From a bacterium (GTDB taxonomy: Bacteria; Acidobacteriota; Blastocatellia; HR10), in the NCBI GenBank assembly GCA_041640655.1, contig JBEPZV010000022.1, forward strand, positions 1 through 38,472: a stretch of 38,472 nt of DNA. The letters run 5' to 3'. The notes beneath the pieces were generated by a model that was given only the letters and a program-made list of their open reading frames with translations, was not told the DNA's origin and did not search any database. Both the position numbers and the translations under genes were made by a program. Positions 6,291-33,558 of this stretch are shown piece after piece (position 1 is the stretch's first letter; every line of letters begins with the position of its first letter).

Positions 6291-6319
6291 TTGACAGCCA
6301 CGCCGCCGGTCATGATAAT
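6291..6319 (+). promoter_or_regulatory. Sigma70-type promoter of gntR
   Basis: TTGACA (6291-6296), 17 bp, GATAAT (6314-6319). Confidence 0.7.
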
Positions 6320-6331
6320 ACGGCTCTTCGT

Positions 6332-7000
6332 ATGCGCGGGAGCCGGTCAACGAATCCGGGACAACGGCGCGTGCTGTCCGATGGCATCTATGATCAGCTC
6401 AAGGCCGAGATCATCACCGGCGCGCTGAAGCCCGGGCATTACTTCTCGGAGACCGAACTCGCTCGACGATTCCACGTCAGCCGCACTCCGATCCGCGAAG
6501 CCTGCGCGCTCTTGGAGAGAGAGGGCCTGCTGCAGAGCCTCCCCTACAAGGGGTATCTCGTCCCTCCGATCACCTTCGAGGACTTGCAGAAGCTCTACCA
6601 AGTGCAGCTCATCGTTGAGAGCGCGTGCGCGGAGTTGGCGGCTCACGCCATTGACCCTGAACACTTGACCATGCTCGAGCAGCTCTGTCGGGCCTCCTAT
6701 ACCTTTGAGGATCGCAAGAGCTACTTCGCCTTCATCCGCGCGAATTTCCGCTTCCATACGCTCATCGCTGAGGCGACGGGCAATGACCTGCTGCTGGAGA
6801 TCGTGCTCGACGTCGAGAACAAGCTCCAGCGCTTCTTCTATCACACGATCGGCCTGGGCGCCTATGGCCCGCTTTTGGTCGAAGAGCACACGGCCATTGT
6901 TCAAGCGCTGCGCGATGGCGATCCGCACCGCGCCCGTCGCGCCATGGAGCGACATATTCAGAACACGAAGGAGCGAACCTCGAAGCTGTTTCTGAAGTGA
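6332..7000 (+). CDS. GntR family (FadR subfamily, FCD domain) transcriptional regulator
   Basis: wHTH SETELARRFHVSRTPIREA; FCD motifs NFRFH..IAEATGN and EEHTAIVQAL..MERHI. Confidence 0.92.
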   Translation: MRGSRSTNPGQRRVLSDGIYDQLKAEIITGALKPGHYFSETELARRFHVSRTPIREACALLEREGLLQSLPYKGYLVPPITFEDLQKLYQVQLIVESACAELAAHAIDPEHLTMLEQLCRASYTFEDRKSYFAFIRANFRFHTLIAEATGNDLLLEIVLDVENKLQRFFYHTIGLGAYGPLLVEEHTAIVQALRDGDPHRARRAMERHIQNTKERTSKLFLK

Positions 7001-7043
7001 GGACGTCATCGGGAGCATCGTGCGCCACGACCGCGAGGAGGAG

Positions 7044-8957
7044 ATGATGAGGAGGGGAGGAGGACGCCGCTCTGTACTCGGGATGAGTCTTCTCGTCCTC
7101 GCCGTGCTTCTCTCAGGTCCTCGAGCGACGGCGCAGCCACAGGCTGCGCCGATCGAGCTCTGGGTGGACGCCTCGGAGGCGCCGCGAAAGATCTTCCACG
7201 TGCGCATGCAGATCCCCGTCTCGCCCGGCCCGCTCGTGCTCGTCTATCCCAAGTGGATTCCGGGCGAGCACGGACCGACCGGCCCGATCGCGAACCTCGC
7301 GGGGTTGAGCGTGCGCGCTGGTGATCGCGAGGTCCCCTGGCGGCGCGATCCGCGCGACATGTTCGCCTTCCACGTGGAGGTCCCCTCGGGCGTCTCTCAG
7401 CTCGAGGTGACCTTCGACTACCTCTCTCCGACGGCGCCCGGGGGCTTCAGCACGAATCCCTCGGCGAAGCTGGCCGTCATGGATTGGCACCTGTTCCTCC
7501 TCTACCCGAAGGGGAGCGACATCGAGCGAACGCTCGTTCGCCCGAGGCTCCGCCTGCCCGCAGGCTGGCAGTGGGGGGGAGCGCTGTCGGCGCAAGCTGC
7601 ACGTCAGAATGAGATCGTCTTCGATCCCATCCCCCTCTTTCTGTTGATGGACACGCCCATCGTCATCGGCGCGCACTATCGGCGGATTGAGTTGGCGGGA
7701 CCGACCGACGGGCTCCCTCCGCATGTGATGGACATCGTCGCCGATAGCGAATGGGCGCTCGACATCCCCGCATCGCGCCTGGCCGCCTATCGGCGGCTCG
7801 TTCGAGAAGCCCGGGCGCTCTTCGGCGCCATGCATTATCCGCGCTACCATTTCCTCGTGTCGCTCAGCGATCACATCAGCCCCTTCGGTCTGGAACACCA
7901 CCAGACGTCGAACAACCAGGTCCCCGAACGGTTCTTCGTGGACGAGGAAGTGCATCGGCGATTGGCCGATCTGCTGCCCCACGAATTCGTCCACGCCTGG
8001 TGCGGCAAGACGGTGCGCCCACAAGGCCTGGTGACGACCGACTATCAGCAGGAGATGCTCACCGACATGCTCTGGATCTATGAGGGGCTGACGCAGTACT
8101 ACGGTCTCGTGCTCGCTGTGCGAAGCGGCTTGCTCTCGATGGAGGAGGGACGCCAAGTGCTGGCGGCTTACGCCGATGGATTGAATCATCAAACGGGGCG
8201 CCTCTGGCGACCGCTTCAAGACACGGCGACGGCAGCGCAGATCCTCTACACAGCTCCGGCGGAGTGGGCGAACTGGCGACGCGGCGTGGATTTCTACCCC
8301 GAAGGTGCGCTGCTGTGGCTGGAGACCGATGTGCTCATTCGCCAGCTGACCGAGGGACGGCGCTCGCTGGATGACTTCGCACGAGAATTCTTCGGCTCCG
8401 GCATTGGACCGGGCGGTCGGATCTTCGTGAAGCCGTACACGGCCGAGGAGCTCTACGCCGCGCTCCACAAGATCGTCCCCTACGACTGGAAAGGCTTCTT
8501 CGCGTCTCGACTCAGCGAGAAACGACCTCAGGCCCCGATGGCCGGCCTTCTCGAAGGAGGATGGAGGTTGAGTTACACAGAGGCGTCTAATCCCTTCGCG
8601 CTCCCGCTCTCGGAGGACGTCCTTCCGCTTCCCTCCTCGCTGGGTCTGGCCGTGAAAGAAGACGGGCGCATCCTCGACGTCGGCTATGGGACGCCGGCCT
8701 ATCGGAGCGGCCTCGGACCCGGGATGAAGATCGTCGCCGTGAATGGACGACGGTTCAGCAAGGACGTCTTCCTGCGCGCGCTCGCCGCCGCGCGCGACGG
8801 TCGCCCGATCCAGCTCCTGGTGGAGAACGACGAGTTCTTCACCACGCACGAGTTGCTGTACCCCGAAGGGGTGCGATTCCCGCAGCTGGTGAGGGATGAG
8901 AAGAAGCCCGATGTGCTGTCGCAGATTCTGGCGCCGCGCGCCGCCGAGCGACGATAA
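7044..8957 (+). CDS. Secreted M61 (glycyl aminopeptidase family) metallopeptidase with C-terminal PDZ domain
   Basis: Signal peptide; PKWIPGEH, GLEH, HEFVH (HExxH), WIYEGLTQY; PDZ segment GTPAYRSGLGPGMKIVAVNG. Confidence 0.88.
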   Translation: MMRRGGGRRSVLGMSLLVLAVLLSGPRATAQPQAAPIELWVDASEAPRKIFHVRMQIPVSPGPLVLVYPKWIPGEHGPTGPIANLAGLSVRAGDREVPWRRDPRDMFAFHVEVPSGVSQLEVTFDYLSPTAPGGFSTNPSAKLAVMDWHLFLLYPKGSDIERTLVRPRLRLPAGWQWGGALSAQAARQNEIVFDPIPLFLLMDTPIVIGAHYRRIELAGPTDGLPPHVMDIVADSEWALDIPASRLAAYRRLVREARALFGAMHYPRYHFLVSLSDHISPFGLEHHQTSNNQVPERFFVDEEVHRRLADLLPHEFVHAWCGKTVRPQGLVTTDYQQEMLTDMLWIYEGLTQYYGLVLAVRSGLLSMEEGRQVLAAYADGLNHQTGRLWRPLQDTATAAQILYTAPAEWANWRRGVDFYPEGALLWLETDVLIRQLTEGRRSLDDFAREFFGSGIGPGGRIFVKPYTAEELYAALHKIVPYDWKGFFASRLSEKRPQAPMAGLLEGGWRLSYTEASNPFALPLSEDVLPLPSSLGLAVKEDGRILDVGYGTPAYRSGLGPGMKIVAVNGRRFSKDVFLRALAAARDGRPIQLLVENDEFFTTHELLYPEGVRFPQLVRDEKKPDVLSQILAPRAAERR

Positions 8958-8970
8958 CGCGAGGGCGACG

Positions 8971-10293
8971 ATGAGCGACGAGGTCCGAGAAGAAGTATTC
9001 CCCGCAGCTTCGCCGAAATCCCCCAAGGTGTCTTCGGAGAACGCGAAACGCACGGTCGGGCTCCTGGCGTGGCTTCGACACGCTTCGACCGAGCAGCGCC
9101 GCGCGCTCGTGGCCGCGTGCCTGGGATGGATGCTCGACAGCATGGACGTCATGCTCTATGCGATGGTCCTCGCCCACCTGATGCGCGACTTGCAGATGAG
9201 CGCTTCGACAGCGGGCTTGCTCGGATCACTCACGCTGCTCTCTTCGGCAGTCGGGGGTGTGCTCTTCGGCCTGCTGGCCGATCGCGTGGGTCGAACGAAG
9301 GCGCTCATGGCGAGCATCCTCATCTACTCGGTCTTCACCGCCGCCTGCGGTCTGGCACAGACCATCACCCAGCTCGCCGTGTTTCGCGTTCTCCTGGGCC
9401 TGGGCATGGGGGGAGAATGGGCGACGGGAGCCGCGCTCGTCTCGGAGACCTGGCCCCCTGAGCATCGCGGCAAAGCCTTGGGGATCGTCCAAAGCTCCTG
9501 GGCCGTGGGCTACGCGCTCGCCGCGGCCATCACGGCGCTCGTCCTGCCGCGCTATGGATGGCGAGCGGTCTTCTTCTTCGGCGTCCTCCCCGCACTCTTG
9601 ACCTTCTGGATTCGACGCTCGGTCGAAGAACCCGCATTGTGGAAGACGGCGCATCAAGAGCGCGCGCGCTCGACCCTCTCAGCGCCTGGGATCGCGGAAC
9701 TGTTCCACCGGCAGTTCCTCCGCCATACCCTCACGACGACGCTTATGAACACCAGCTCCATGTTCGCCTGGTGGGGATTGTTCACGTGGATTCCGGCGTA
9801 TCTGACGCTGCCGCCTGAGCATGGAGGAGCGGGCTTGAGCATTCTGCAAACCTCCACATGGGTGATCCTCATGCAGGTCGGCATGTGGCTCGGCTATGTG
9901 ACCTTCGGATTCATCAGCGATTGGGTGGGGAGGCGGCCGACGTATCTCGCGTACTTCCTCATCGCAGCGGCCTTGGTTCCCATCTACGGAGGCGCGCGGC
10001 ATCCGATCCTGCTGCTCCTTCTCGGTCCGATCGTCGCCTTCTTCGGGACGGGATACTTCAGCGGCTTCGGAGCGATCACCGCCGAGCTCTTCCCGACGCG
10101 CATTCGAGCCACGGCGCAGGGCTTCACATACAACTTCGGACGAGGCGTGAGCGCACTCGCACCGTTCGCCGTCGGCCAGTATGCCGAAGCGCACGGCCTG
10201 GGCGTCGCCTTCTCGCTCACGACGATCGCGTTCCTGATCGCTGCCGCCTTCGCCCTCGCTCTCCCCGAGACGAAGGGGAGAGTGCTCGAGTGA
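8971..10293 (+). CDS. MFS transporter, organic-acid:H+ symporter type (SHS/AAHS-like)
   Basis: About 12 hydrophobic segments; GWMLDSMD, GLLADRVGR, GLGMGGEW, ELFPTRIRATAQG, LPETKG. Start approximate. Confidence 0.9.
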   Translation: MSDEVREEVFPAASPKSPKVSSENAKRTVGLLAWLRHASTEQRRALVAACLGWMLDSMDVMLYAMVLAHLMRDLQMSASTAGLLGSLTLLSSAVGGVLFGLLADRVGRTKALMASILIYSVFTAACGLAQTITQLAVFRVLLGLGMGGEWATGAALVSETWPPEHRGKALGIVQSSWAVGYALAAAITALVLPRYGWRAVFFFGVLPALLTFWIRRSVEEPALWKTAHQERARSTLSAPGIAELFHRQFLRHTLTTTLMNTSSMFAWWGLFTWIPAYLTLPPEHGGAGLSILQTSTWVILMQVGMWLGYVTFGFISDWVGRRPTYLAYFLIAAALVPIYGGARHPILLLLLGPIVAFFGTGYFSGFGAITAELFPTRIRATAQGFTYNFGRGVSALAPFAVGQYAEAHGLGVAFSLTTIAFLIAAAFALALPETKGRVLE

Positions 10294-10306
10294 GCGAAAC
10301 ATCCTC

Positions 10307-10364
10307 TTGACAATCCGATCGGCTCCCATAAAATAGAGGGGCAGCTGTATACAATGTGGATACA
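10307..10364 (+). promoter_or_regulatory. TBDR promoter with tandem FadR/GntR-like operator
   Basis: TTGACA (10307-10312), 16 bp, TAAAAT (10329-10334); palindrome TGTATACA (10346-10353) and near copy TGGATACA (10357-10364). Confidence 0.7.
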
Positions 10365-10403
10365 AAAACGGTAGGAGGAACTCGGAGCCAGAGGAGGATC
10401 GCG

Positions 10404-13238
10404 ATGAGGGATCGGACCCAAGGAGGATGGATTGTCGTCTTGGTCGTGCTCGCCCTTGCTCTGAGGTGCGCCTATGCTCAGGGCGAGTTGGCGACGATGC
10501 GAGGGAAAGTGACCGATGAGACGGGGGCGGTGATCCCCGGCGCCGTCGTCACGGCGACGAACGTCGAGACGGGCTTTCGGCGAACGGCCCGAACATCGGA
10601 CTCGGGGGATTACTGGCTCCCCGCCCTTCCCCCCGGGACATATGAGCTGGCGGTAGAGGCGACTGGGTTCACTCGCCAAATCCGGCGGGGCATCGTTCTG
10701 ACGATTCGGCAGGAAGCGATCATTGACGTCGTACTCAAGGTCGCGGGAATCGAGGAGACGGTCGTCGTCACGGCGGAGGCCCCGATTGTGGAGACCTCGA
10801 AGTCCGAGGTCACCACAGGCGTGAGCGAGCAAATGATTCGCGACCTACCGGTCAACACGCGCCGCTGGCTCGATTTGGGATTGCTCACCCCGGGGGTGAG
10901 TCAGGACAACATTCGGGGATTTTACTATAACAACCTCAACATCGGCGGAGGATCTCGCTGGTGGGCGAACGGCTTCGTCGTGGATGGTGTCACCAACACG
11001 TGGGCCGAGATGGGCGAGCCGCGTCAGAATTTCCCGCAGGATGCCATTCGCGAGTTCAAGGTCAACACGATGCAGTTCAAGGCCGAATATGGTCTGGCCA
11101 GCGGAGGTCTCCTGACGGCCGTCACGAAGTCGGGGACGAACGAGCTGCACGGGAGCGCGTTCCTCTTCTTCCGGGATAAGGTCCTCAACGCGCGCAATTT
11201 CTTCGAGAAAACGAGACCCAACTACCGGCGCTATCAATATGGGGGGAGCTTGGGCGGACCGATCGTGAAGGACAAGACGCACTTCTTTGGCTCTATCGAG
11301 CGCACGGATGAGAACCGCTTCTTCACCGTCTTCACCGGAGGGCTCTATCCGCAGGAGGAGGGGACGTTTCTGAGCGATCAATGGCGGACGATGTTCGTCG
11401 TCCGGGTGGACCATCAATTCAACGAGAGCCATAAGCTCTTCGCTCGATATGCGCAGGAGGACGAGTATCGGCCGTTTTTGACCGCTGGGGGGATCAACGC
11501 GCGGAGCGCGGGCTTTGGTTTCGCCGTTCCCCGTCGGGCACCGGTTATTGGATGGACGTGGACGATCTCACCGCGAGCGCTGAATGACTTCCGCTTTCAA
11601 TATGCCTTCGCCAAATACATCGTCTCCCCGGCTGACACGGGGAAGCGCGGCCATTCGTTCGATCCAGGCGATTTCCCTCAGAAGCGCTTCGACGACTGCG
11701 CGCAGATCATCGTGCGTCCCAGCTTGGTCACCGGCAATTGCAATTCGCAAATGGGGCCTGAAAAGCGGTGGCAGTTCGTGAACAACTTCTCCTACCACAT
11801 TCCGAACCGGTACGGGAAGCACGAGATCAAGACCGGCGTGGATTACAACTGGATTGATTTCGCGGCCGACATCTTCATCAACGTGAAGGGGACCTATTCC
11901 TTCGCGACCGACAAGCCCTACGATCCGAACGATCCGACGACCCGCCCATATCTCTTCACCATGCAATTTCCGGCCTACACGCGGAAGCCGGTGACGCACT
12001 TCTCCGCGTACGTTCAGGACGATTGGTCGCCAATCCCCTATCTCACGCTCAATCTCGGACTGAGGTACGATGTGCAACTGGGTTCCTTCAATGAAGACAT
12101 TGACCAAATCCGATTCCCCGTCCCGGTGCCGTACGTCACTTCCAAGGGACGCGGAGATCACAACAACTTCGGGCCTCGATTTGGTTTCGCGTGGGATCCG
12201 ACGCGGAAGGGCAAGGCCGTGATCCGCGGCGGCTATGGGATCTACTACGAGAACGTCCGGACGCTCACGAACTTCGCCGAGCGTTGGTGGCCGCAGCAGA
12301 AGCTGATCGTCATCTCCAATCCGGCGTATCCGGATCCTTTCCAGGGGCGGAGCCCGGAGGAGTTCATCTCCAAAGCGCCGCCCAATATCACCGTGCTGGC
12401 CAACGATAGCGTCAATCCGTACTCCGAGCAGTACAACCTCGGGCTCAGCATGCAACTGACGCCGAATGTGGCCGTTACAGTGGACGGCGTCTACCACCTC
12501 GGGCTCAAGCAGTGGCGCGCCATAGATGCGAACTATTTCCCCAGCCCGACTGTCCGCGTGCGCCCCAACCCCAATTTCGCACGCGTGACGCGGCGGGAGA
12601 CGGCGGCGAAGTCCCACTATAAGGCGCTCTACGTCAAGGTGGAGAAGCGCTTCAGCCGGAGCTTCACCTTCCTGAGCCATTACACGTTGGCCAAGGGGAA
12701 GGACAATTTGCATGATGGACTCCCGCCGGATCAATTTCGCCTGAGCGACGAATGGGGGCCGAGCCCGACTGATCGCCGTCATGCGTTCGTCTTCAGCGGT
12801 CTGTGGCAACTGCCCTACGGATTCACGCTGGGGGCGATCGTGCAGCTCCGATCGAGTCTGCCGTTTGAAATCACGGCGGGGACGGACCTCAACGGCGACG
12901 GCGTGGCGGGCGATCGCCCGGTGGGCATCACCCGAAACATGGGCTGCCGGGCCATGGACCTGCAGGCGCTCAATGCGTATCGGCAGGCGAATCGGCTCGC
13001 CCCGGTGAGCGAGGCAGACATTCTGTGTCCGGGCTATGCGAACGTGGACTTCCGGCTGACGAAGGCCTTCGCCTTCAAGGAGGCCACGCGCCTGGAGGTG
13101 ATCTTCCAATCCTTCAACCTCTTCAATCGGGTCAACTTCAATCCGCCAACAGGGAATCTGCGCTCCGGGCTCTTCGGAAAGCCCACGACGGCGCTGGATG
13201 CGCGCCAGCTTGAGTTGGCGCTGCGGTTCAGCTTCTGA
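10404..13238 (+). CDS. TonB-dependent receptor, Oar-like, with carboxypeptidase-regulatory-like N-domain
   Basis: Signal peptide; GKVTDETGAVIPGAVVTATN, TKSGTNELHGS, YVQDDW..LTLNLGLRYD, NNFGPRFGFAW; terminal Phe (LRFSF). ATG 10404 follows GAGGAGG. Confidence 0.92.
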   Translation: MRDRTQGGWIVVLVVLALALRCAYAQGELATMRGKVTDETGAVIPGAVVTATNVETGFRRTARTSDSGDYWLPALPPGTYELAVEATGFTRQIRRGIVLTIRQEAIIDVVLKVAGIEETVVVTAEAPIVETSKSEVTTGVSEQMIRDLPVNTRRWLDLGLLTPGVSQDNIRGFYYNNLNIGGGSRWWANGFVVDGVTNTWAEMGEPRQNFPQDAIREFKVNTMQFKAEYGLASGGLLTAVTKSGTNELHGSAFLFFRDKVLNARNFFEKTRPNYRRYQYGGSLGGPIVKDKTHFFGSIERTDENRFFTVFTGGLYPQEEGTFLSDQWRTMFVVRVDHQFNESHKLFARYAQEDEYRPFLTAGGINARSAGFGFAVPRRAPVIGWTWTISPRALNDFRFQYAFAKYIVSPADTGKRGHSFDPGDFPQKRFDDCAQIIVRPSLVTGNCNSQMGPEKRWQFVNNFSYHIPNRYGKHEIKTGVDYNWIDFAADIFINVKGTYSFATDKPYDPNDPTTRPYLFTMQFPAYTRKPVTHFSAYVQDDWSPIPYLTLNLGLRYDVQLGSFNEDIDQIRFPVPVPYVTSKGRGDHNNFGPRFGFAWDPTRKGKAVIRGGYGIYYENVRTLTNFAERWWPQQKLIVISNPAYPDPFQGRSPEEFISKAPPNITVLANDSVNPYSEQYNLGLSMQLTPNVAVTVDGVYHLGLKQWRAIDANYFPSPTVRVRPNPNFARVTRRETAAKSHYKALYVKVEKRFSRSFTFLSHYTLAKGKDNLHDGLPPDQFRLSDEWGPSPTDRRHAFVFSGLWQLPYGFTLGAIVQLRSSLPFEITAGTDLNGDGVAGDRPVGITRNMGCRAMDLQALNAYRQANRLAPVSEADILCPGYANVDFRLTKAFAFKEATRLEVIFQSFNLFNRVNFNPPTGNLRSGLFGKPTTALDARQLELALRFSF

Positions 13239-13249
13239 TCGTGCTCGGT

Positions 13250-13325
13250 CCTCACGGGAGAGGTGCGATGAGTCCCGAGTGCGGCGGCATGTCCATGAGG
13301 GACTTCACCGCCCTCTCCTGTGAGG
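13250..13325 (+). other. Long intergenic stem-loop between the TBDR and M14 genes
   Basis: CCTCACGGGAGAGG (13250-13263) pairs with CCTCTCCTGTGAGG (13312-13325); inner AGTCCC/GGGACT. Confidence 0.6.
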
Positions 13326-13372
13326 TCCACGGACCTTCTTCGATTCGCGGCGGCATCCTGGGGGGACGAACG

Positions 13373-16300
13373 ATGAGAAGGAATGCTCGATGTTTGGCGG
13401 TGCTGGGGGGATCGGCCGTGCTCATACTCGCTCTTTCGATCCCGGCACACGCGCAGGAGCGGCTTTCGAGTCTCGCGCAGGTGTTCTCGAAAGGATACCT
13501 GCTCCAAGATCGCAACGATGACGGTGTCGTTGATTTCGTCGCGCTGGCGATCATCGCTCCTCGCGAAGCCACAGCGGCTGACGCGGCCATCCTCGCGGAC
13601 ATCGGCGCGCGTTTGGGATTCGAGACGATGGGGCTCGATGTGCCATTGGTCTTCACGGATTCGGATCCCGCGCTCCCGGAAACCCCTTATGTGCTCCTGA
13701 TCGGGAGCAAGAATCGGTGGATTCAACGACTCGTCGGCGAAGGACGGCTGGATCTGGCGACGCTCAACCCCGGGGAGGGGATGATCGCGCTCCTTCCCTC
13801 CGCTCTCGAGGGGAGAGATGCGCTCGTCATTGTGGGACGCGATGACGATGGCCTTCGGGAAGCCGGTCACGTCTTCGCCGCACGGATGCCGTACCTCTGG
13901 CGCGTGGGGAGAGAGACCGTGAGACAGATCGAGGAAGAGGCAACGGCGTTCTTCGAGAGAAACGGCCTCGGGCGCCCATCGGTAGCCGCGCGCACCATCA
14001 CGGTGCGCAGGGGAGCGGAGGAGATCGCGTCGGTCCTCCTTGAAGTGTCGTTCGGTCGCGCGACCGAAGCGGTGCAGGCCGCCGAACGGCTTCGGGAGCT
14101 TGCGGCCGCGCATGAACGGCATCAGCGCGAGGACGTGCTCAATTACGCGAGCGTCGCTCGGCTGATCTTCGAGCTTCGAGCAGGAGCCGAGGCGCAACGC
14201 GTGGAGGTTCCAAGAAGCGGGATGCCGAAGAGGGATCCGCTCCCCCTCGTCCGTGAGAGTCGGGAACCCGCTCGAGAGTTGAGCCTGGCCAACATTTACT
14301 CCACGGAAGGGCTCCTGAAAGGATCGCCGACCGAACTCATCCCGAACCGCGTGGACACGACGATCCTCGTGGGACCGGATCGGGAGGCGGTGTGGGCGGC
14401 GGAGATCGCCGCGCGCCTCGGCTTGGAATCCACGGGTGTGAAGCTGCCCATCTCCCGAATGGCCAATGAGGTCACAGATGAGAAGAGCGAGATCAATCCG
14501 GTCCTGATCGGGCGAGAGAACCCCTTCGTGCGAGCGCTTCGAGAGCGAGGGAAGCTGACGACTCTCGCGGAGTTGCAACCGAATCAGGGCGTGGTCGAGA
14601 TCGTTCATCATGCGTTTGACGAATCTCCAGCCGTCGTCGTCGCGGGCGCCGATGAGGCGGGGACGCGCGAGGCGGCCCGCTACTTGGCCGCTCGTGTCCC
14701 CTATCTCTGGGAGCACAAGAAAGGCCGACTGACCCTTGGGATGATCGAGGACGAGGTGCGACGGTTCTTCGCCGCGCGCTCCGGCGCCGGACAGGCGGCC
14801 ACAGCGCTCTACAAGCTGGATCGGCTCATCGCCTCGGAGCTTGCGGGAAAAGATGTGGAATCGGCCACTGTGAACGTCTACGTGGAGGACGCCGAGGATG
14901 GATTCGCCCGCTTCGTGGAGGACTACATTCGTCCCAAGCTCAAGGCCGAGCGCGTGCAGATCGCGGCGACCAACATTGATCTCTTCCATGCGCGGCCGAT
15001 TCTGGACGAATCGTGGGAGATCCCGTGGGAAGTTCAGGACGTCTGGAATGTGCTGCGCTCCCGCGTCCTCCCGCGCGTGAAGAAGCAGTCGCGTGTGGAG
15101 ATCGAGATTCGAGTGAGCGAGGCTCCGGAGGTTCGGCGCGAGCTGGAACGCGCCATTCGCGCGGCGTTGCGACAGCGAGGGATCCCCGAGGAGAGGATCA
15201 CCGTCCGCGTGCTCTCCGCCTACAAGCAAGGCTTCAGCTGGATCACGGACGTCGTGCTCCCGGCGATTCGGGAGCGCCGGTCGGAGATCGCGAAGATCCT
15301 CATTCGCTTCGCCCCTGTGGAACAGGAGAAGGATCGGCCGGAGCTTCGGTGGCAGACGATCTTCTCCCCTATTCGCTGGTTGCAGGAGCTGTATCCCATA
15401 GACGAAGTGCTCGCCCGTGAATTAGGGCTCCCCGTGGATGCGATCGTCTTCGAGAAGGCCGCTTCGCCCAAGAGCCCGATCTATCATCTTGAAGTCCTCG
15501 ATCGCGCGGGGCGTCCTCTCTATCAGGGCGATTTCGATCCGAAGTTCGTGGTCCTCCCGCTCTTTCGGCAGTTCCCCGACTACGAATCGGTTCGGGTGAC
15601 GACGGGATGGATTACGGCCGATGTGGACGGCCGGCGCGTGGCGGATGAACGGATCGTCACTGATCCGGAGAAGTTCTGGGCTCTCTATCAGACGAAGCTC
15701 CTGCCGCGTCTTTTCGCCTATGTCATGGACCTCTACGAGGGGCAGCCCAAGACCGAACACGCGCCGTACTTCGGCGAGTTGAGGGTGGAGCTGACGCTGA
15801 GCGAGCCGGATTATCCGCTGGGTATTGATCAGGAGCAGATCTCATCGCTCGAGGCCCTGCATGAGGACATCTATTTCGGCACATTGGCGTTCCTTGATCT
15901 CATTGGGTTGAAGTTCGTCGGGGAACGGTTGCTCTATCCGGGACGGATCATCCCCCTCATCTATCCCCCCCGCCATGGGGAGAATGGGCGCGCGCGGATC
16001 CTCCTCACGGGAAAGGCAGCGGGCTCTCCGCGCATCGTCCTCGAATGGACGGAGCGGGGGAAGGAAGGAAAGCAGAAACGTTCGCTCGACATCCCGAAGG
16101 TGGCCGTCGAAGATCCGCGCGTCGTGGCGGCCATTGTGGAGGCCGGATACGAAGGGGTACGACGCGTGGATGTCGCGCTGCGCACGGATACTGAGCGGGA
16201 TGAGCGCGAGGAGCTGATCAAACGGGCCCCTGAAGAGATCGTGGATCGCACGATCCTCTCCGCTGAGCAAGCGCGCGCCATGGTGGAGATCTTGCGGCGG

Positions 16301-17632
16301 CTTCATCAAGCGCGGCTCTTCACGGCGACGTTGGCCTATCCGCAGCTCGATCGCCTTCGCATCCGCCTCATCTCCCCGGAGAAGACGACGTCCGAGGACC
16401 TCCCGAATCCAGGCTCGACATTCCCGGTGAAAGATATCGAAGCCCGAGGGCGAGGATATCGGCATACGGGCGAGCGGATCGTCCACTGGGCGGAGCCGAT
16501 CAGCCCTGAAGCATGCGAGGAGATCATCGCGAAGCTCAGCACGTTTCCGGAGATCACGGCCTATTGGGTCGGCAGGTCGTACCTAGGACGCGACATCTGG
16601 GCGATGGACGTCATGTGGCCGATCTCGACGACGCTCTGGTCGCACGCGAAGGCGACGACGTTCAAGCCGACGCTCTTCATCTCCGGCCGACAACATGCCA
16701 ACGAGGTCTCCAGCACGAGTCATATCTTGCGCCTCGCCGAATTGCTGGCGACCGATCCGGCGTACAAGAAATATCTCAAGCGAGTGAATGTGGTGCTGCA
16801 TCCGATCACGAATCCGGATGGGGCCGCGCTGGCCTATGAGTTGCAGAAGCTCACCCCCCACTTCATGCTTCACGCCGGATATTGGGGGGCCTTGGGCGTG
16901 GACGTGACCGTCGGTCAATGGGAGCGCGATCCGATATATCCGGAGACAAGAGTGAGGCGCGAGATCTGGCGCACATGGTTGCCGGATGTTTTCCTGAATC
17001 CGCATGGCTATCCCTCCCACGAGTGGGTTCAGCTCTTCGGAGAGTACGCCGGATGGGTGCGCTCGCGTGTGCCCGAGCGCGGGCGGGCGTGGTGGGCCCC
17101 GCGCGGATGGTTCATTCCGGGGTTCTCCTATGTTCAAGACCCTCGATATCCGAAGCACAAGGACGTGGCCTTCGCGCTTCGCGATCGCATTGCCGAGGCG
17201 ATCAACAGCGACGCCCGTTTGCGCGAGCTGAATCGTCGCATGTACGCGCGCTATCGGAAGTACGGCGTGCAGTGGGATCCGAAGACCTACAAGGAGGACC
17301 TCCACAAAGGCGTGCGCATCTACACGGCCATCAAGGGGATCAAGCCGAGTCCGAATGCCCCGAGTTTCATGGGGCGATACCCTGCCGTGACCGTCTTCGA
17401 GAGCGGCACGGAAGCTCCCGATGAGACGGCGCGAGGAGAGTGGCTCGAGCTTGTGGCGACCGCGGGACTTCTCTTCGATCTCGCTCACGTGCAGTTCCTC
17501 TACGAATCCCACTACGAGGTGAAGCGGAGCGAGGAGGAGATGGCCACGGGCATCCGATTCACGGTGAGCCGAAAGCGCCCGGTGCTCCCCCCTCAGGCGG
17601 AGACGCGCGCCCTTGAGCCCTCGGCGCGATGA
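13373..17632 (+). CDS. Large secreted multidomain protein (1419 aa) with a C-terminal M14 zinc carboxypeptidase-fold domain
   Basis: Signal peptide ending AHA; GRSYLGRDI, GRQHANE (HxxE), NPDG, NPHGY; duplicated N-terminal domain. Confidence 0.8.
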   Translation: MRRNARCLAVLGGSAVLILALSIPAHAQERLSSLAQVFSKGYLLQDRNDDGVVDFVALAIIAPREATAADAAILADIGARLGFETMGLDVPLVFTDSDPALPETPYVLLIGSKNRWIQRLVGEGRLDLATLNPGEGMIALLPSALEGRDALVIVGRDDDGLREAGHVFAARMPYLWRVGRETVRQIEEEATAFFERNGLGRPSVAARTITVRRGAEEIASVLLEVSFGRATEAVQAAERLRELAAAHERHQREDVLNYASVARLIFELRAGAEAQRVEVPRSGMPKRDPLPLVRESREPARELSLANIYSTEGLLKGSPTELIPNRVDTTILVGPDREAVWAAEIAARLGLESTGVKLPISRMANEVTDEKSEINPVLIGRENPFVRALRERGKLTTLAELQPNQGVVEIVHHAFDESPAVVVAGADEAGTREAARYLAARVPYLWEHKKGRLTLGMIEDEVRRFFAARSGAGQAATALYKLDRLIASELAGKDVESATVNVYVEDAEDGFARFVEDYIRPKLKAERVQIAATNIDLFHARPILDESWEIPWEVQDVWNVLRSRVLPRVKKQSRVEIEIRVSEAPEVRRELERAIRAALRQRGIPEERITVRVLSAYKQGFSWITDVVLPAIRERRSEIAKILIRFAPVEQEKDRPELRWQTIFSPIRWLQELYPIDEVLARELGLPVDAIVFEKAASPKSPIYHLEVLDRAGRPLYQGDFDPKFVVLPLFRQFPDYESVRVTTGWITADVDGRRVADERIVTDPEKFWALYQTKLLPRLFAYVMDLYEGQPKTEHAPYFGELRVELTLSEPDYPLGIDQEQISSLEALHEDIYFGTLAFLDLIGLKFVGERLLYPGRIIPLIYPPRHGENGRARILLTGKAAGSPRIVLEWTERGKEGKQKRSLDIPKVAVEDPRVVAAIVEAGYEGVRRVDVALRTDTERDEREELIKRAPEEIVDRTILSAEQARAMVEILRRLHQARLFTATLAYPQLDRLRIRLISPEKTTSEDLPNPGSTFPVKDIEARGRGYRHTGERIVHWAEPISPEACEEIIAKLSTFPEITAYWVGRSYLGRDIWAMDVMWPISTTLWSHAKATTFKPTLFISGRQHANEVSSTSHILRLAELLATDPAYKKYLKRVNVVLHPITNPDGAALAYELQKLTPHFMLHAGYWGALGVDVTVGQWERDPIYPETRVRREIWRTWLPDVFLNPHGYPSHEWVQLFGEYAGWVRSRVPERGRAWWAPRGWFIPGFSYVQDPRYPKHKDVAFALRDRIAEAINSDARLRELNRRMYARYRKYGVQWDPKTYKEDLHKGVRIYTAIKGIKPSPNAPSFMGRYPAVTVFESGTEAPDETARGEWLELVATAGLLFDLAHVQFLYESHYEVKRSEEEMATGIRFTVSRKRPVLPPQAETRALEPSAR

Positions 17633-17750
17633 ATGGGCGATCCCCCTAAGCCGACCACTTGCGTCAGGACGAAGGCAGCGTCTATGGTGAGAGGGGACCG
17701 AGCAAGGCGCCTTGCCCTGATACTGAGGTGACCGAGAGCAGGAGGCGAAG

Positions 17751-19769
17751 ATGTTGCGAATTGGCGTGGATACGGGAGGGACATTCACGGACTTCGTCCT
17801 TGTGCGCGATGGGGTGATCGTCACCCTGAAGGTGCCTTCGACGCCGAAGCATCCCGAAGAAGCGGTGCTCGCGGGGGTGAGCGAGGTGCTCGGCGAAGAG
17901 GATGTGGAGTTCGAGTTGGTGCACGGGACGACCGTGGGAACCAACGCGTTGCTCGAGCGCAAGGGGGCGCGCACGGCGCTGCTCACGACCGAGGGATTCG
18001 AGGACGTGCTGGAGATCGGGCGACAGAATCGGCCGGGGTTGTATCAACTCACGGCCTCGCGGCCGAAGCCACTTGTCCCGCGAGCGCTTCGTTTCGGCGT
18101 GCGCGAGCGCGTGACATCTGCGGGAGAGGTGCTCATTCCCCTGGATCGCGATCAGGTGCACGAGCTGCGCGCGCGACTCGCGCAACTGGGCGTGGAATCC
18201 GTCGCCGTTTGCTACCTCTTCGCCTTCCTCGAACCGAGGCATGAGCGGGAGACGGCCGAGCTGTTGGCCGACCTCGGCGTGCCGGTCTCGCTCTCGCATG
18301 AGATCCTGCCGGAATTTCGCGAATACGAGCGCACCTCCACGACGGTCATCAACGCCTACTTGGCCCCACTCATGGGCCGATACATCCAGCGGCTGGAGGA
18401 GGGCTTGATCCATCTCGGAGACGCGCGCCGTTCTCCGGTCCGTCCGGTGCTGCGCATCATGCAGTCGAACGGGGGGTCGATCTCCGCGCGCGCAGCGGCC
18501 GAGCAGCCGGTGCGCACGGTGCTCTCCGGACCGGCCGGAGGTGTGGTCGGCGCCTTCGCCATTGCTCAACGCATCGGACTCTCGCGGATCATCACCTTCG
18601 ACATGGGGGGGACCTCGACCGACGTCAGCCTCGTGGAGGGCGCGATTCAAACGACGCACGAGGCGCGCATCGCCGAGATGCCCATCGGCATTCCAGTCAT
18701 TGACATCCACACGGTGGGCGCCGGCGGCGGGTCCATCGCGCGCGTGGATGAGGGCGGTGCCCTGCGCGTCGGACCGGAGAGCGCGGGCGCCGATCCGGGT
18801 CCCGTCTGCTATGGGCGAGGCGAAGAGATCACCGTCACCGATGCGCACCTGCTGCTTGGACGGCTCGATCCCGATCGGTTTCTCGGTGGAACGATGCCGC
18901 TTCATCCGGCGCGCACGCGCGAATACTTCAGCGTCTTCCGCCACCGTTTCCCCCGCCCGGCCTCGGAGGTGGAGATCGCCCTGGGGATTCTCGACGTCGC
19001 CAATGCCAACATGGCACGGGCCATCAAGGTCATCTCCATCGAACGCGGCCATGATCCGCGCGATTTCACCCTCATCGCTTTCGGAGGAGCTGGAGGGTTG
19101 CATGCGTGCGACCTCGCCGAGATGCTCTCGATCCCGCGCGTGCTGGTGCCGAAGCATCCCGGTTTGCTCTCAGCGCTCGGCGTCTTACTCTCGGACGTCG
19201 TCAAGGACTACTCGCAAACGGTCATGCTCGCGCAGGAGGAGATCGCGCCGGAGCGCTTGGAGGTGGTCTTCTCTCGCCTGGAGGCGCGCGCGCGCGCAGA
19301 CCTTCGCGCCGAGGGATTCCCCCCCGACCGCATCCTGCTCTCGCGCTTTGTGGACGCGCGCTATGCCGGACAAGCGTTCGAGCTGTCGCTGCCGTTCACG
19401 CCCGATCTCATCGCGGAGTTCCACCGCGCGCACGAACGTCGCTATGGCTATGCGGACTCTGCGCGAAAGGTCGAACTGGTCACTCTGCGCGTGAGAGTGT
19501 GCGGGATCACGGAGAAACCCGCCTTCCCGCCTCGCGAGCGCCGCGCGATCGCGGTGGAACCGGTGGCGCGCCGCCCCGTCTATTTCCAAGAGGACGGATC
19601 CCCGATCGCGCGAGAGACGCCCTTCTACTGGCGCGAAGCGCTCGCGCCAGGTGCGACGCTCGCCGGGCCGGCCATCGTCCTGGAGTACAGTGCGACGACG
19701 GTCGTCCCACCCGGATGGCGCGCGGAAGTAGACGAATACGAGAACGTGATCCTCTCGCGGGAGCGTTGA
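17751..19769 (+). CDS. Hydantoinase A / ATP-dependent 5-oxoprolinase family, ATP-binding subunit
   Basis: GVDTGGTFTD, HGTTVGTNA, EYERTSTT, SGPAGG, DMGGTSTD, GAGGGS, SAGADPGP; SD AGGAGG. Confidence 0.92.
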   Translation: MLRIGVDTGGTFTDFVLVRDGVIVTLKVPSTPKHPEEAVLAGVSEVLGEEDVEFELVHGTTVGTNALLERKGARTALLTTEGFEDVLEIGRQNRPGLYQLTASRPKPLVPRALRFGVRERVTSAGEVLIPLDRDQVHELRARLAQLGVESVAVCYLFAFLEPRHERETAELLADLGVPVSLSHEILPEFREYERTSTTVINAYLAPLMGRYIQRLEEGLIHLGDARRSPVRPVLRIMQSNGGSISARAAAEQPVRTVLSGPAGGVVGAFAIAQRIGLSRIITFDMGGTSTDVSLVEGAIQTTHEARIAEMPIGIPVIDIHTVGAGGGSIARVDEGGALRVGPESAGADPGPVCYGRGEEITVTDAHLLLGRLDPDRFLGGTMPLHPARTREYFSVFRHRFPRPASEVEIALGILDVANANMARAIKVISIERGHDPRDFTLIAFGGAGGLHACDLAEMLSIPRVLVPKHPGLLSALGVLLSDVVKDYSQTVMLAQEEIAPERLEVVFSRLEARARADLRAEGFPPDRILLSRFVDARYAGQAFELSLPFTPDLIAEFHRAHERRYGYADSARKVELVTLRVRVCGITEKPAFPPRERRAIAVEPVARRPVYFQEDGSPIARETPFYWREALAPGATLAGPAIVLEYSATTVVPPGWRAEVDEYENVILSRER

Positions 19770-19771
19770 AG

Positions 19772-21364
19772 ATGTCGTGTGATCCGATCAAGCTGGAGAT
19801 CTTCAAATCGCTCTTCATCTCGATCGCCGAAGAGATGGGCGTCACGCTGCGACGCACGGCCTTCTCCCCCAACATCAAAGAGCGACGCGATTACTCCTGC
19901 GCCATCTTCGATGAGGAGGGACGGCTTGTCGCTCAAGGCGACCATATGCCCGTGCATCTGGGGTCGATGCCGATGTCGGTGCGGAAGGCCATCGAGGCCG
20001 TCGCGCTCGACCCCGGCGATGTGGTCGTTCTCAACGATCCGTATGAGGGCGGGACGCATCTGCCGGATGTGACGCTCGTCTCCGCCGTTTACGTCGAAGG
20101 GCGACCGTTCTTCTACGTCGCCAATCGCGCGCATCACGCCGACATCGGCGGTATGTCCGCCGGCTCGATGCCGCTCTCGACCGAGATCTTCCAGGAGGGC
20201 TTGCGCATTCCGCCGATCAAACTCTATGAGCGCGGACGGCTCAACACGTCGGTCATGCGCCTGATCCTGGCCAACGTGCGGACGCCGGTCGAGCGGGAAG
20301 GCGACCTCACGGCGCAATTGGCAGCCAATCGCACGGGCGAGAAGCGGCTGCGCGAGGTGGTTGCCAAATACGGCGCGGAGGAGGTCGCCTTCTACATGCG
20401 CGAGCTGCAGGCATATGCTGAGCGCATGGTGCGCGCGCGCCTGGCGACGATCCCGGATGGCGATTACGGGGCCGAGGATTACCTGGACGATGATGGGATC
20501 ACCGAGGATCCCATCCCGATCCGCGTCACGATTCGCATCCGGGGAGATTCGGCCATTGTGGATTTCACCGGGTCCGCTCCGCAGACGCGCGGCAACGTCA
20601 ATGCCGTGTACGCCATCACCCTCTCGGCCACGTCTTACGTCTTCCGCGCGATCACTGGCGGCGATATTCCGGCCAACGCGGGCGTGCTCGCTCCGATCAC
20701 GGTCATCGCGCCGGAGGGGACCGTCGTGAACGCCGTCTTCCCGGCTCCGGTCGCAGCGGGGAATGTCGAGACGTCGCAACGCCTGGTGGACGTGCTGCTG
20801 AAGGCCCTGGCGCCGGCATTGCCCGATGTCATCCCGGCGGCCAGCAGCGGCACGATGAATAACCTCACGCTCGGGGGGATTGATCCGCGTACCGGGGCTC
20901 CTTTCGCGTACTACGAGACGATCGCCGGAGGCATGGGCGCGAGCCCTCAGGGCGATGGTGACAGCGGCGTGCACACGCACATGACGAATTCGCTCAACAC
21001 ACCCGTGGAAGCGCTCGAATATGCCCTGCCCGTACGCGTGCGCCGCTACTGCCTGCGCGCGGGTTCCGGAGGACGCGGCCACCACCGCGGAGGTGACGGG
21101 ATCATCCGCGAGATCGAATTCCTCACCGATGCGGATGTCGCGATCCTCTCCGAACGCCGACGCTTCGCCCCTTACGGCCTTCATGGCGGCGAACCCGGTC
21201 AGCCTGGAGAGAACGTCTTGATCTCCAATGGCATCGAGCGCCGATTACCCGGGAAGGTGAACATCCGCGTGAGAAAAGGCGACGTGCTCTCCATCCGAAC
21301 TCCCGGAGGAGGAGGATGGGGCGCTCCCACGCGCAATGCCGAGACCTCATCCGTGTTGAGCTGA
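19772..21364 (+). CDS. Hydantoinase B / 5-oxoprolinase family, metal-binding subunit
   Basis: SPNIKERRDYSC, PVHLGSM, NDPYEGGTHLPD, HHADIGG, GTMNN, HTHMTN, TPGGGGWG. True start is ATG 19772, not 19106. Confidence 0.92.
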   Translation: MSCDPIKLEIFKSLFISIAEEMGVTLRRTAFSPNIKERRDYSCAIFDEEGRLVAQGDHMPVHLGSMPMSVRKAIEAVALDPGDVVVLNDPYEGGTHLPDVTLVSAVYVEGRPFFYVANRAHHADIGGMSAGSMPLSTEIFQEGLRIPPIKLYERGRLNTSVMRLILANVRTPVEREGDLTAQLAANRTGEKRLREVVAKYGAEEVAFYMRELQAYAERMVRARLATIPDGDYGAEDYLDDDGITEDPIPIRVTIRIRGDSAIVDFTGSAPQTRGNVNAVYAITLSATSYVFRAITGGDIPANAGVLAPITVIAPEGTVVNAVFPAPVAAGNVETSQRLVDVLLKALAPALPDVIPAASSGTMNNLTLGGIDPRTGAPFAYYETIAGGMGASPQGDGDSGVHTHMTNSLNTPVEALEYALPVRVRRYCLRAGSGGRGHHRGGDGIIREIEFLTDADVAILSERRRFAPYGLHGGEPGQPGENVLISNGIERRLPGKVNIRVRKGDVLSIRTPGGGGWGAPTRNAETSSVLS

Positions 21365-28162: not shown

Positions 28163-28196
28163 ATCGCCACCCCCTCCCCGCAAATATGCGACGCCA

Positions 28197-28205
28197 ATAG
28201 TATCA
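28197..28205 (-). promoter_or_regulatory. Candidate extended -10 promoter of the amidohydrolase
   Basis: Minus strand TGaTACTAT about 35 bp upstream of the ATG. Confidence 0.35.
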
Positions 28206-28260
28206 CGATCCCTCCTGGCGGGGAACCCTCGGATGAGCCTTCACCGCCTTCGAGCGCGCT

Positions 28261-30021: not shown

Positions 30022-30089
30022 CTTCTCCTCCGGATCAGCAGAAGAGGTGCCGAGGACCCGCAAATCTTGCACGCATCCGAACGCAGGAC

Positions 30090-30118
30090 ATTATACGCGA
30101 CTGCGCGTCTCCAACCAA
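30090..30118 (-). promoter_or_regulatory. Candidate promoter of the serine hydrolase
   Basis: Minus strand TTGGTT (30118-30113), 17 bp, TATAAT (30095-30090). Confidence 0.55.
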
Positions 30119-30252
30119 TTCGTTGAGCGGGAAGAAGCGCGGAGACACGACATCTCGCAACGAGGCCTCATCCCAGGCCATCAGGAGAACAGGGGCGGCG
30201 ACATTGGGATCATGAGCGCGCGAAGATCACCTTGCCGATCTGCGGGCACAGA

Positions 30253-30285
30253 AGGCGGGAGCTCCTGCTGCTGGAACTCCCGCCT
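30253..30285 (-). terminator. Hairpin immediately downstream of the second TBDR
   Basis: Minus strand AGGCGGGAGTTCC-agcagca-GGAGCTCCCGCCT: 13-bp stem with one G-U pair, weak U-tract. Confidence 0.55.
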
Positions 30286-30290
30286 CGCGC

Positions 30291-33518: not shown

Positions 33519-33558
33519 GGCCTTCCTCACCTCCTTAGCTTGGGATACTGCAGGGCCT

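Follow-up and report, generated by a model that had tools for sequence, protein, structure and literature searches.

The 38,472-nucleotide contig JBEPZV010000022.1 of an acidobacterial genome (assembly GCA_041640655.1; GTDB lineage Acidobacteriota, Blastocatellia, HR10), referred to here as the window, carries seven genes on its forward strand between positions 6332 and 21364. They encode a GntR-type regulator, an M61 peptidase, a transporter of the major facilitator superfamily (MFS), a TonB-dependent receptor (TBDR), a secreted protein of 1,419 residues with an M14 peptidase domain (the big M14), and the subunits HyuA and HyuB of a putative ATP-dependent lactamase. We suggest, with a probability of roughly 60%, that Acidobacteriota share a conserved locus by which 5-oxoproline (pyroglutamate) is taken up and broken down, and that this cluster is one of its versions. 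Import of 5-oxoproline and opening of its ring are most likely the work of the inner half, i.e., the transporter and the ATP-dependent lactamase, to judge from the comparison of sequences. The outer half, consisting of the TBDR and the big M14 with the M61 peptidase in this genus and a DUF2891 protein elsewhere, most likely supplies it. Homology alone names no substrate; it is the comparative pattern, in which the lactamase alternates with the 5-oxoprolinase subunit PxpA and either is the sole copy in most of the genomes tested, that leads to the reading as a 5-oxoprolinase. The original prediction that the lactamase opens pyroglutamate is supported by this alternation, by the sole-copy status and by the recruitment of DUF2891. 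The features of the cluster are as follows.

6332-7000, forward strand: GntR+FCD regulator of the FadR subfamily, 222 residues (Pfam PF00392, PF07729)
7020-8957, forward strand: M61 peptidase, secreted, with a weak C-terminal PDZ domain (Pfam PF05299, PF17899)
8896-10293, forward strand: MFS secondary transporter, start codon uncertain (Pfam MFS_1, 166 bits)
10404-13238, forward strand: TBDR-like outer-membrane protein, its open reading frame (ORF) opening at a GTG at 10356 (CarboxypepD_reg, OMP_b-brl_4, PF00593)
13373-17632, forward strand: big M14, secreted, 1,419 residues (partial Pfam M14 match of 54 bits, S_layer_C, signal-peptide-like N-terminus)
17751-19769, forward strand: HyuA, putative ATPase subunit of an ATP-dependent lactamase, candidate 5-oxoprolinase subunit A (Hydant_A_N, Hydantoinase_A, Hydant_A_C)
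19772-21364, forward strand: HyuB, putative catalytic subunit, candidate 5-oxoprolinase subunit B (Pfam Hydantoinase_B, 749 bits)
6291-6319, forward strand: sigma-70-like promoter match TTGACA-17-GATAAT before the GntR gene (consensus scan, 11/12)
10307-10334, forward strand: sigma-70-like promoter match TTGACA-16-TAAAAT before the TBDR gene (consensus scan, 11/12)
10346-10364, forward strand: candidate GntR operator, TGTATACA followed by TGGATACA (palindrome behind the -10 box, at a conserved position)

Conservation of the cluster

With an alignment of 15 relatives of the big M14 as query we fetched 80 genomic loci, each with up to 10 kb on either side, and counted the partners by tblastn with the window proteins and with neighbours found in the fetched loci. 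An MFS orthologue is present in 36 of the 80 loci (50-67% identity to the window protein), a TBDR orthologue in 19 (37-59%, where the second TBDR-like protein of the window gives 26-31% over comparable lengths), HyuA together with HyuB in 13 (49-54% for HyuA and 59-65% for HyuB), and a GntR orthologue in eight (37-44%). Twenty loci carry PxpA (LamB/YcsF), six a DUF2891 gene and two a gamma-glutamyltransferase gene. A lactamase gene therefore lies in 32 loci, with HyuAB and PxpA together in one (L011), and 28 of these 32 have the MFS gene too. At least one of MFS, lactamase and TBDR is found in 41 loci. The gaps are mostly small, with a median of 321 bases for PxpA and 976 for the MFS gene, and none of the housekeeping neighbours of the window recurs in the 80 loci. 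Conservation of the neighbourhood had been proposed as a check on the original prediction. It holds for GntR, MFS, TBDR, big M14 and HyuAB, which recur across Acidobacteriota classes, but not for the M61 gene, which tblastn found in none of these 80 distant loci.

The arrangement of the partners differs between lineages. In Terriglobia the gene order is HyuB<-HyuA<-GntR<- ->TBDR->DUF2891->big M14->MFS, and many Vicinamibacterales-type loci read big M14->PxpA->MFS, often with the TBDR gene upstream. A quick FastTree analysis of 59 big M14 sequences gave a Terriglobia group, a Gemmatimonadota group without partners, and a Vicinamibacterales-type group that includes the window. In one locus (L025, 14566-16092) a gene of the sodium:solute symporter family takes the place of the MFS gene, between big M14 and HyuA, and in another (L010) an M20 peptidase gene follows the MFS gene. 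The Vicinamibacterales locus L011 (9851-24227) has big M14, gamma-glutamyltransferase, a second TBDR, DUF2891, PxpA, HyuA and HyuB in series, its gamma-glutamyltransferase scoring 435 bits against a cut-off of 358 for TIGR00066. We take the position of its PxpA gene, directly before HyuAB, to resemble the fungal lamA/lamB lactam-utilisation pair. Upstream of this series the locus also encodes another big M14 paralogue, together with a sigma-54 response regulator and a receiver-only protein. By their record titles, most versions of the locus come from soil-type lineages (Terriglobus and Granulicella isolates, Vicinamibacterales metagenome-assembled genomes), so that the earlier argument from the faster formation of pyroglutamate at high temperature is unnecessary.

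The simplest alternative is that these genes are chance neighbours and form no functional unit. TBDR-like genes are very common in these genomes, there being a second one in the window and two more beside other HyuAB pairs of the same genome, and a consensus promoter scan gave three sites in total against a shuffled expectation with a mean of 2.5, which is no better than chance. However, the orthologues recur together across classes in differing orders and orientations, single-copy genes lie a few hundred bases from the big M14 gene in genomes of 4-9 Mb, and a rare palindrome keeps its regulatory position even in distant genomes. The spread of one recently transferred island could revive this explanation, but protein identities of 35-50% between the loci counter it. 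We thus regard chance as a very improbable explanation. The cluster is a real, regulated and widely conserved unit, common to many soil and hot-spring Acidobacteria.

Conservation within the genus is close. Forty relatives were examined, six being other genomes of the genus and 34 belonging to other genera of the family, order or class. The big M14 is present in five of the six (85-97% identity) and was not found in the 34, which gave weak M14-domain matches only, with E above 1e-6. The genus keeps the order pdxS-pdxT-GntR-M61-MFS-TBDR-big M14-HyuA-HyuB as far as the fetched stretches extend. The M61 gene is found in all four genus genomes whose stretch reaches its position (G001, G003, G005 and G006) and is a genus-specific accessory gene. 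One genome of the genus, G004, is a natural deletion variant (L107, contig C3 17000-36999). The M61, TBDR and big M14 genes are gone, as is the TGTATACA site; what remains is a GntR gene cut to a 54-residue match and a short M14 piece with a stop codon (TGA). MFS, HyuA and HyuB are kept over full-length alignments, and this retention marks MFS and HyuAB as a unit that is able to stand alone.

Gene families in the window were assigned by Pfam and NCBIfam profile scans of its ORFs. Together with the ORF calls, these confirm the seven co-oriented genes and the families first given for them. The forward strand from 6332 to 21364 is packed with these long ORFs and the gaps are short. The MFS ORF overlaps the end of the M61 gene by 62 bases, and HyuB starts at the ATG at 19772, 2 bases past the HyuA stop, the ORF start at 19106 having been discarded. 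Upstream lie pheT, pdxS and pdxT, and downstream a convergent gene of no known family, a Na/H exchanger gene and serA. Since both flanks are housekeeping, the cluster is sharply bounded. The convergent gene (21382-22482, reverse strand) encodes 366 residues that match no Pfam or NCBIfam model, and adjoins HyuB in six of six genus relatives at 78-87% identity.

Near-identical DNA comes from hot springs. Every one of the 30 bins of the stretch is covered by the DNA runs X5, X7 and X13, with several contigs each and few differences per hundred letters, which yields no further information. A metatranscriptome library (X20) holds 7% of the sampled words, and its contigs of 178-398 bases, with 1-12 differences, map to GntR/M61, M61, TBDR and the end of HyuB; as contigs of an RNA library they demonstrate neither transcription nor an operon.

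The lactamase and its alternation with PxpA

HyuA matches Hydant_A_N (181 bits), Hydantoinase_A (323 bits) and Hydant_A_C (48 bits), all above the cut-offs, and together with HyuB it forms a pair of the two-subunit family. Its N-terminus reads ...GVDTGGTFTDFVL..., which includes DTGGTFTD and fits DxGGTxTD, described in PMC8453981 as the phosphate-binding motif of the actin-like ATPase of subunit A. The best PDB matches of HyuA are 7hk5 (deposited as N-methylhydantoinase, 2e-150) and 6yra (3e-123), and 7hk5 is also the best match of HyuB; our literature search gave no paper on the 7hk5 structure. Scores against the equivalog models of CapA and CapB (NF050156 and NF050157) were 545 and 292 bits, below the cut-off of 1000. 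Fused HyuA-HyuB forms with 55-65% identity to HyuB occur in Edaphobacter and Ktedonobacteria. Some are automatically named 5-oxoprolinase, a name that is no evidence.

The PxpA protein that takes the place of HyuAB in other loci passes the cut-off of the NCBIfam subfamily model "5-oxoprolinase subunit PxpA", with 357 bits where 226 are required. We compared five genomes with HyuAB-type loci (G041-G045) and five with PxpA-type loci (G046-G050). PF03746, the PxpA family, was absent from all five HyuAB-type genomes in scans in which control genomes matched, and three of them (G041, G042 and G043) have no PF02538 gene other than the linked HyuB. Each of the five PxpA-type genomes has exactly one PxpA, with coordinates within the fetched locus, and the window HyuB gave no match in four of the five. 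PxpB lies on a separate contig in four of the five, so PxpA has moved from its usual partners to a place beside big M14 and MFS. The window's own genome (89.8% complete) likewise gave no PF03746 match, with control genomes matching. Bacteria are considered to need a 5-oxoprolinase in order to dispose of 5-oxoproline that forms spontaneously (Niehaus et al. 2017, as cited in PMC8453981 and bioRxiv 10.1101/2021.12.09.472016). On that cited view a linked lactamase that is the sole family member of its genome is the best 5-oxoprolinase candidate in the genomes tested, and the opening of the 5-oxoproline ring by HyuAB is most likely the cytoplasmic step of the pathway.

The same architecture could instead serve another cyclic amide, such as hydantoin, N-methylhydantoin, 2-pyrrolidone, valerolactam or a carboxy-lactam, e.g., 2-aminoadipate lactam. 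The name under which the best PDB match of both subunits was deposited would fit this, as would the HyuAB- and PxpABC-family members of P. putida that are described as specific for butyrolactam, valerolactam or caprolactam (bioRxiv 10.1101/2021.12.09.472016). Moreover, the genome that holds the window has a classical hydantoin-type cluster (racemase, M20 and HyuAB) with the same GntR and TBDR design. On the other hand, the linked PxpA or HyuB is the sole copy in eight of the ten genomes tested, and bacteria are considered to need a 5-oxoprolinase, as cited above. The DUF2891 and gamma-glutamyltransferase genes in the locus point to glutamyl/5-oxoproline chemistry, and the recruited transporters are of anion or proline-like types. 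We therefore favor 5-oxoproline and consider a different cyclic amide unlikely.

We give about the same low weight to general scavenging of peptides and amino acids, in which a 5-oxoprolinase would be co-located merely to clear the 5-oxoproline that arises from imported glutamate and glutamine. The big M14 has a classical carboxypeptidase fold, an M61 aminopeptidase has been added in the genus, an M20 peptidase follows the MFS gene in L010, and a genome's linked lactamase has no second copy, as expected of a housekeeping enzyme. However, this explanation does not account for repeated recruitment of a lactamase beside the same MFS and M14 genes, by HyuAB in some lineages and by PxpA split from PxpBC in others. 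After the loss of its peptidases, G004 keeps exactly MFS and HyuAB, which resembles a pair for uptake and hydrolysis, and the conserved core of the 80 loci contains no amino-acid or oligopeptide permease.

In the tree the linked HyuB proteins cluster closely, at a distance from three paralogues of the window's own genome whose branches are long. Further HyuA/HyuB clusters of this genome were noted as well. On contig C1 (80000-97000, L087) the order is GntR/FCD<-TBDR<-M20<-Asp/Glu/hydantoin racemase<-HyuA<-HyuB<-amidohydrolase; this cluster is of the hydantoin type and also holds a luciferase-like oxygenase. The adjoining stretch (97001-114000, L088) reads TBDR<-HyuA<-HyuB<-isochorismatase<-family III CoA-transferase<-HMGL-like lyase. 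A GntR-type gene lies near both clusters. The HyuB partner of a third HyuA (L089) carries a fused acetone-carboxylase gamma domain.

Regulator, receptor and the big M14 protein

The regulator combines an N-terminal winged helix (PF00392, 61.9 bits) with a C-terminal FCD domain (PF07729, 103 bits), the composition of the FadR subfamily. It is 41% identical to the copy in the Terriglobus locus, versus 29% to a GntR/FCD paralogue of its own genome. FadR-type GntR operators are palindromes of the t.GT...AC.a type. In the window TGTATACA lies at 10346-10353 and TGGATACA at 10357-10364, and these are the sole such sites in its 38 kb. There are 12 occurrences of TGTATACA in 1.64 Mb of fetched DNA, and ten of them lie upstream of a TBDR orthologue or in the divergent spacer between GntR and TBDR. 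These ten belong to the window, to four genomes of the genus (L102-L105) and to five Terriglobia loci (L036, L037, L040, L041 and L072). The remaining two (L007 and L008) are elsewhere, the L007 site being within a gamma-glutamyltransferase gene region. The TGTATACA palindrome fits a FadR-type operator, which suggests that it is a candidate binding site of the GntR protein.

The promoter-like sites take their weight from position and conservation. Boxes reading TTGACA and TAAAAT/TAGAAT are visible upstream of the palindrome in four genus relatives, and for the match at 6291-6319 position is the sole support. Because a promoter-like site and the conserved palindrome occupy 10307-10364, the real start of the TBDR is probably the ATG at 10404, which is preceded by GGAGG. 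A possible separate promoter for the HyuAB pair had been put at 17659-17688, where the consensus scan reported no site.

The TBDR matches CarboxypepD_reg (83 bits), OMP_b-brl_4 (406 bits) and PF00593 (33 bits, cut-off 27), and thus belongs by its domains to the 22-strand barrels of outer-membrane receptors. The same type of receptor, CarboxypepD_reg with OMP_b-brl_4, is found twice more beside HyuAB pairs in this genome. Given these two further clusters, the TBDR could equally import a small cyclic amide itself, and TBDRs of the source organism may import such amides directly. The second TBDR-like gene of the window (reverse strand, within 26807-33530) encodes 1,079 residues with a weak Plug match and lies upstream of a gene for a serine hydrolase of the beta-lactamase family with DUF3471, together with an amidohydrolase gene. 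The region 26807-33530 may be a further TBDR-linked hydrolase locus.

The nearest NCBIfam subfamilies of the MFS protein are organic-acid symporters, namely aromatic-acid/H+ and sialate/H+, both below their cut-offs, and we propose from its sequence and neighbours that it is a 5-oxoproline/H+ importer. Its best PDB matches, over the N-terminal half only (E ~3e-17), are entries of synaptic vesicle glycoprotein 2A. This glycoprotein is the binding site of pyrrolidone drugs, which we take as a curiosity and not as evidence for the role of the transporter. In six loci (L018 16459-17793, L022 16478-17872, L033 16902-18173, and also L023, L024 and L032) the MFS gene is directly followed by a gene for a protein of ~440 residues, which begins like a signal peptide, contains two internal repeats and matches no Pfam or NCBIfam model. 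The M61 protein contains Peptidase_M61_N (92.8 bits) and Peptidase_M61 (107.8 bits), which place it in the glycyl-aminopeptidase family M61, and PDZ_6 at E 0.002.

For the big M14 the protein collection yields at least 1,468 full-length relatives, of which the named ones are called either M14 family metallopeptidase or hypothetical protein. The closest named relative of the big M14 among the matches listed is from "bacterium HR10" (96% identity), and a Protein Atlas search returned unnamed M14 clusters only. Pfam PF00246 scores 54 bits against a cut-off of 21.6, but the match is partial, with the first ~100 model positions aligned. The whole sequence found no match among PDB chains at E up to 0.01, and a profile search of the PDB with the 58-sequence alignment A2 gave two weak carboxypeptidase matches that align only up to the NPDG motif.

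We obtained two AlphaFold models from 58-sequence alignments, one of residues 566-1419 and one of residues 28-565. The first has a predicted local distance difference test (pLDDT) score of 88.7 and a predicted template modelling (pTM) score of 0.89. In this model the last ~380 residues (~1030-1410) align by VIA-align with domain II of carboxypeptidase D (Z 24.8, root-mean-square deviation 3.4, 293 aligned), with procarboxypeptidase B (Z 24.3) and with carboxypeptidase T (Z 22.6). Z is only 14-15 for MpaA, Csd4 and the succinylglutamate desuccinylase/aspartoacylase group. Foldseek gave bacterial M14 entries with a best E of 8e-11, and a C-terminal beta-sandwich is present, as in carboxypeptidase D. 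Residues H1108, E1111, H1211 and E1347 (H543, E546, H646 and E782 in A2) are invariant in the 58 sequences. We take the first three to be the zinc ligands and E1347 to be the catalytic base, as in the M14 family. The fold, with HxxE...H and a later Glu, places this domain in the M14 metallocarboxypeptidase family by model and alignment. The original description as an M14-fold hydrolase is thus right as to secretion and fold, but it applies only to the last ~380 residues of a multidomain protein of 1,419.

The model of residues 28-565 (pLDDT 93.5) resembles the periplasmic cellulose-synthase subunit BcsB (Z 19.7, 286 aligned), the cell-wall anchoring domain of the Methanococcus voltae S-layer (Z 16.6, 27% identity) and the N-terminal domains of glycoside hydrolase family 115 enzymes (Z 10-12). 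This region can be modelled as two BcsB-like or S-layer-anchor-like alpha/beta modules. Residues ~566-1030 are conserved and are modelled with high confidence, but their fold searches were filled by the M14 domain. A few matches to procarboxypeptidases A and B begin near model residue 256-262, a hint that the middle region contains a piece resembling a pro-segment. On these models, the big M14 is probably an active zinc hydrolase of the carboxypeptidase type, set on modules of a polymer-holding or envelope-anchoring kind.

Seven loci (L009, L011, L014, L016, L023, L042 and L043) have two big M14 paralogues no more than 10 kb apart. In six of them one copy is upstream and one downstream of the TBDR gene; in L014 the second copy is downstream and on the opposite strand. 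The six copies upstream of the TBDR gene form a branch of their own in the quick tree.

The N-terminal modules raise the question of whether the big M14 acts on the cell's own envelope (peptidoglycan stem peptides or the S-layer), its neighbours recycling the products. The likeness to BcsB and to the archaeal anchoring domain would suit such a role, and the peptidoglycan-acting M14 members MpaA and Csd4 are among the structural matches, with Z about 15. However, the M14 domain is much nearer to carboxypeptidases D, B, A and T (Z 22-25), and a TBDR and a ligand-responsive GntR repressor suit nutrient uptake better. In addition, G004 can do without the whole M14/TBDR part, and none was found in the 34 genomes of other genera of the class. 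We consider an envelope role improbable, and favor the supply of 5-oxoproline as the role of the big M14.

A proposed route for 5-oxoproline

Several findings weigh against the assignment to 5-oxoproline. Of the 80 big M14 loci, 39 have no partner gene in reach, though many of the 39 are on short contigs; among them are all 20 loci that belong to Gemmatimonadota by their record titles, and the big M14 family is not everywhere tied to 5-oxoproline. Residues 1-366 of the TBDR give no match to Plug (PF07715) even at E up to 1, although about 125 residues, the size of a Plug, lie between the N-terminal domain and the barrel. In carboxypeptidase A, Asn144, Arg145 and Tyr248 bind the free C-terminal carboxylate of the substrate; in the big M14, by eye, the classical GVDxNRNF motif reads GVDVTxGQW, so that it may not be a plain carboxypeptidase. 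The ten genomes of the phyletic comparison came from loci chosen because they show the association, and genomes that are related do not count as independent. The two systems are not strictly exclusive, since PxpA and HyuAB are neighbours in L011 and both systems occur in G050. The window's own genome holds four HyuA paralogues, and the linked pair is not the sole 5-oxoprolinase candidate there. Among the closest solved relatives of HyuAB is the P. jessenii enzyme, described as a caprolactamase without 5-oxoprolinase activity (PMC8453981), and the PxpABC paralogues and OplBA of P. putida are each reported as specific for one lactam (bioRxiv 10.1101/2021.12.09.472016). The substrate is thus not fixed by family membership alone.

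The acidobacterial cluster brings together a TBDR with secreted hydrolases, a transporter of the inner membrane, an enzyme of the cytoplasm and a regulator of its own, as do loci that link a TBDR to catabolism, including polysaccharide utilisation loci (PULs) of the SusC/SusD type. It had been called a PUL-like system, but none of its seven gene products matches the SusD family in Pfam, and its apparent target is an amino-acid derivative and not a glycan. Strictly speaking, the cluster thus does not qualify as PUL-like. The classical M14 enzymes (carboxypeptidase D domain II, B, A and T) share with the big M14 the fold, HxxE, the later His and the Glu, and the big M14 has ~1,000 extra N-terminal residues.

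The nearest parallel to the inner half is the pxpR-pxpTABC system of C. glutamicum, as described in PMC13274462. It comprises pxpR, a GntR-type regulator that binds 5-oxoproline at about 0.7 uM, pxpT and pxpABC, and so unites a GntR-type repressor, a secondary transporter and an ATP-dependent 5-oxoprolinase in a logic of sensing, import and opening. The transporter there is the NRAMP-like PxpT and here an MFS protein, and the enzyme there is PxpABC and in the window of the HyuAB type. Relative to that system, the acidobacterial locus adds an outer-membrane TBDR and a secreted M14 protein of 1,419 residues. The PF03746 subunit of PxpABC was not found in the window genome, and PxpA takes the equivalent place in the 20 loci given above. 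The eukaryotic-type 5-oxoprolinase and the HyuAB/OplBA/CapAB enzymes share with the window HyuAB the two-component architecture, the Pfam domains and the DxGGTxTD motif, as far as these enzymes are described in the sources cited above; the equivalog scores set the window pair apart from CapAB.

DUF2891 provides a further link to 5-oxoproline. Its gene lies between TBDR and big M14 in the Terriglobia loci and is also present in L011, and the protein has a signal-peptide-like N-terminus. In C. jejuni, the deletion of cj0552-4 (DUF969, DUF979 and DUF2891) is described as abolishing growth on 5-oxoproline (PMC12795558). DUF2891 is shared between that system and the Terriglobia and L011 versions of the locus, whereas the window itself is without it. 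For Pontixanthobacter, PMC10040529 gives consecutively numbered gene clusters of equal co-occurrence value for Hydantoinase B/oxoprolinase, DUF969, DUF979 and DUF2891, which we read as adjacent genes. No DUF969 or DUF979 was found in the loci among the subset of ORFs that was scanned. As first supposed, the combination of genes does not appear to be a described system, none having been found in the literature searched. It is best filed with the 5-oxoproline utilisation operons and the TBDR-linked catabolic loci.

We infer the identity of the substrate, the direction of transport, the cargo of the TBDR, the target of the big M14 and the ligand of GntR from this comparative picture, and a route can be proposed as follows. 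The FadR-type GntR protein would repress the unit of TBDR, big M14 and HyuAB by binding TGTATACA behind the TBDR promoter, and would be released by 5-oxoproline or a close relative. The TBDR would carry the substrate over the outer membrane, either dilute free 5-oxoproline or peptides blocked by a pyroglutamyl residue. The big M14, with M61 in the genus, would degrade imported or surface-bound material from its C-terminal end and leave 5-oxoproline; this manner of supply is our suggestion for how the outer half may work. The MFS protein would move 5-oxoproline into the cytoplasm, and HyuA/HyuB would open the ring to glutamate, spending ATP. A bolder version is possible but doubtful. In this version the big M14 would be a dedicated envelope enzyme that frees 5-oxoproline from material brought in by the TBDR, either peptides blocked by a pyroglutamyl residue or a polymer rich in glutamyl residues, the cluster would be the first locus to handle a pyroglutamyl substrate from outer membrane to cytoplasm, and HyuAB and not PxpABC would be the sole 5-oxoprolinase of many Acidobacteria.

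Glutamine and glutamate turn spontaneously into 5-oxoproline, which is expected to be common where protein decays. If the assignment to 5-oxoproline is true, a dominant soil phylum would have a dedicated and regulated system for harvesting it. The MFS transporter, the TBDR, the HyuAB-type enzyme and the giant M14 protein would be parts that have not previously been linked to this harvest. Two unrelated 5-oxoprolinases would substitute for each other in one locus, and the regulator and its operator would form a pair that might serve as a 5-oxoproline sensor. For the big M14 family, with well over a thousand members that are uncharacterised so far, the locus would provide the first functional handle.

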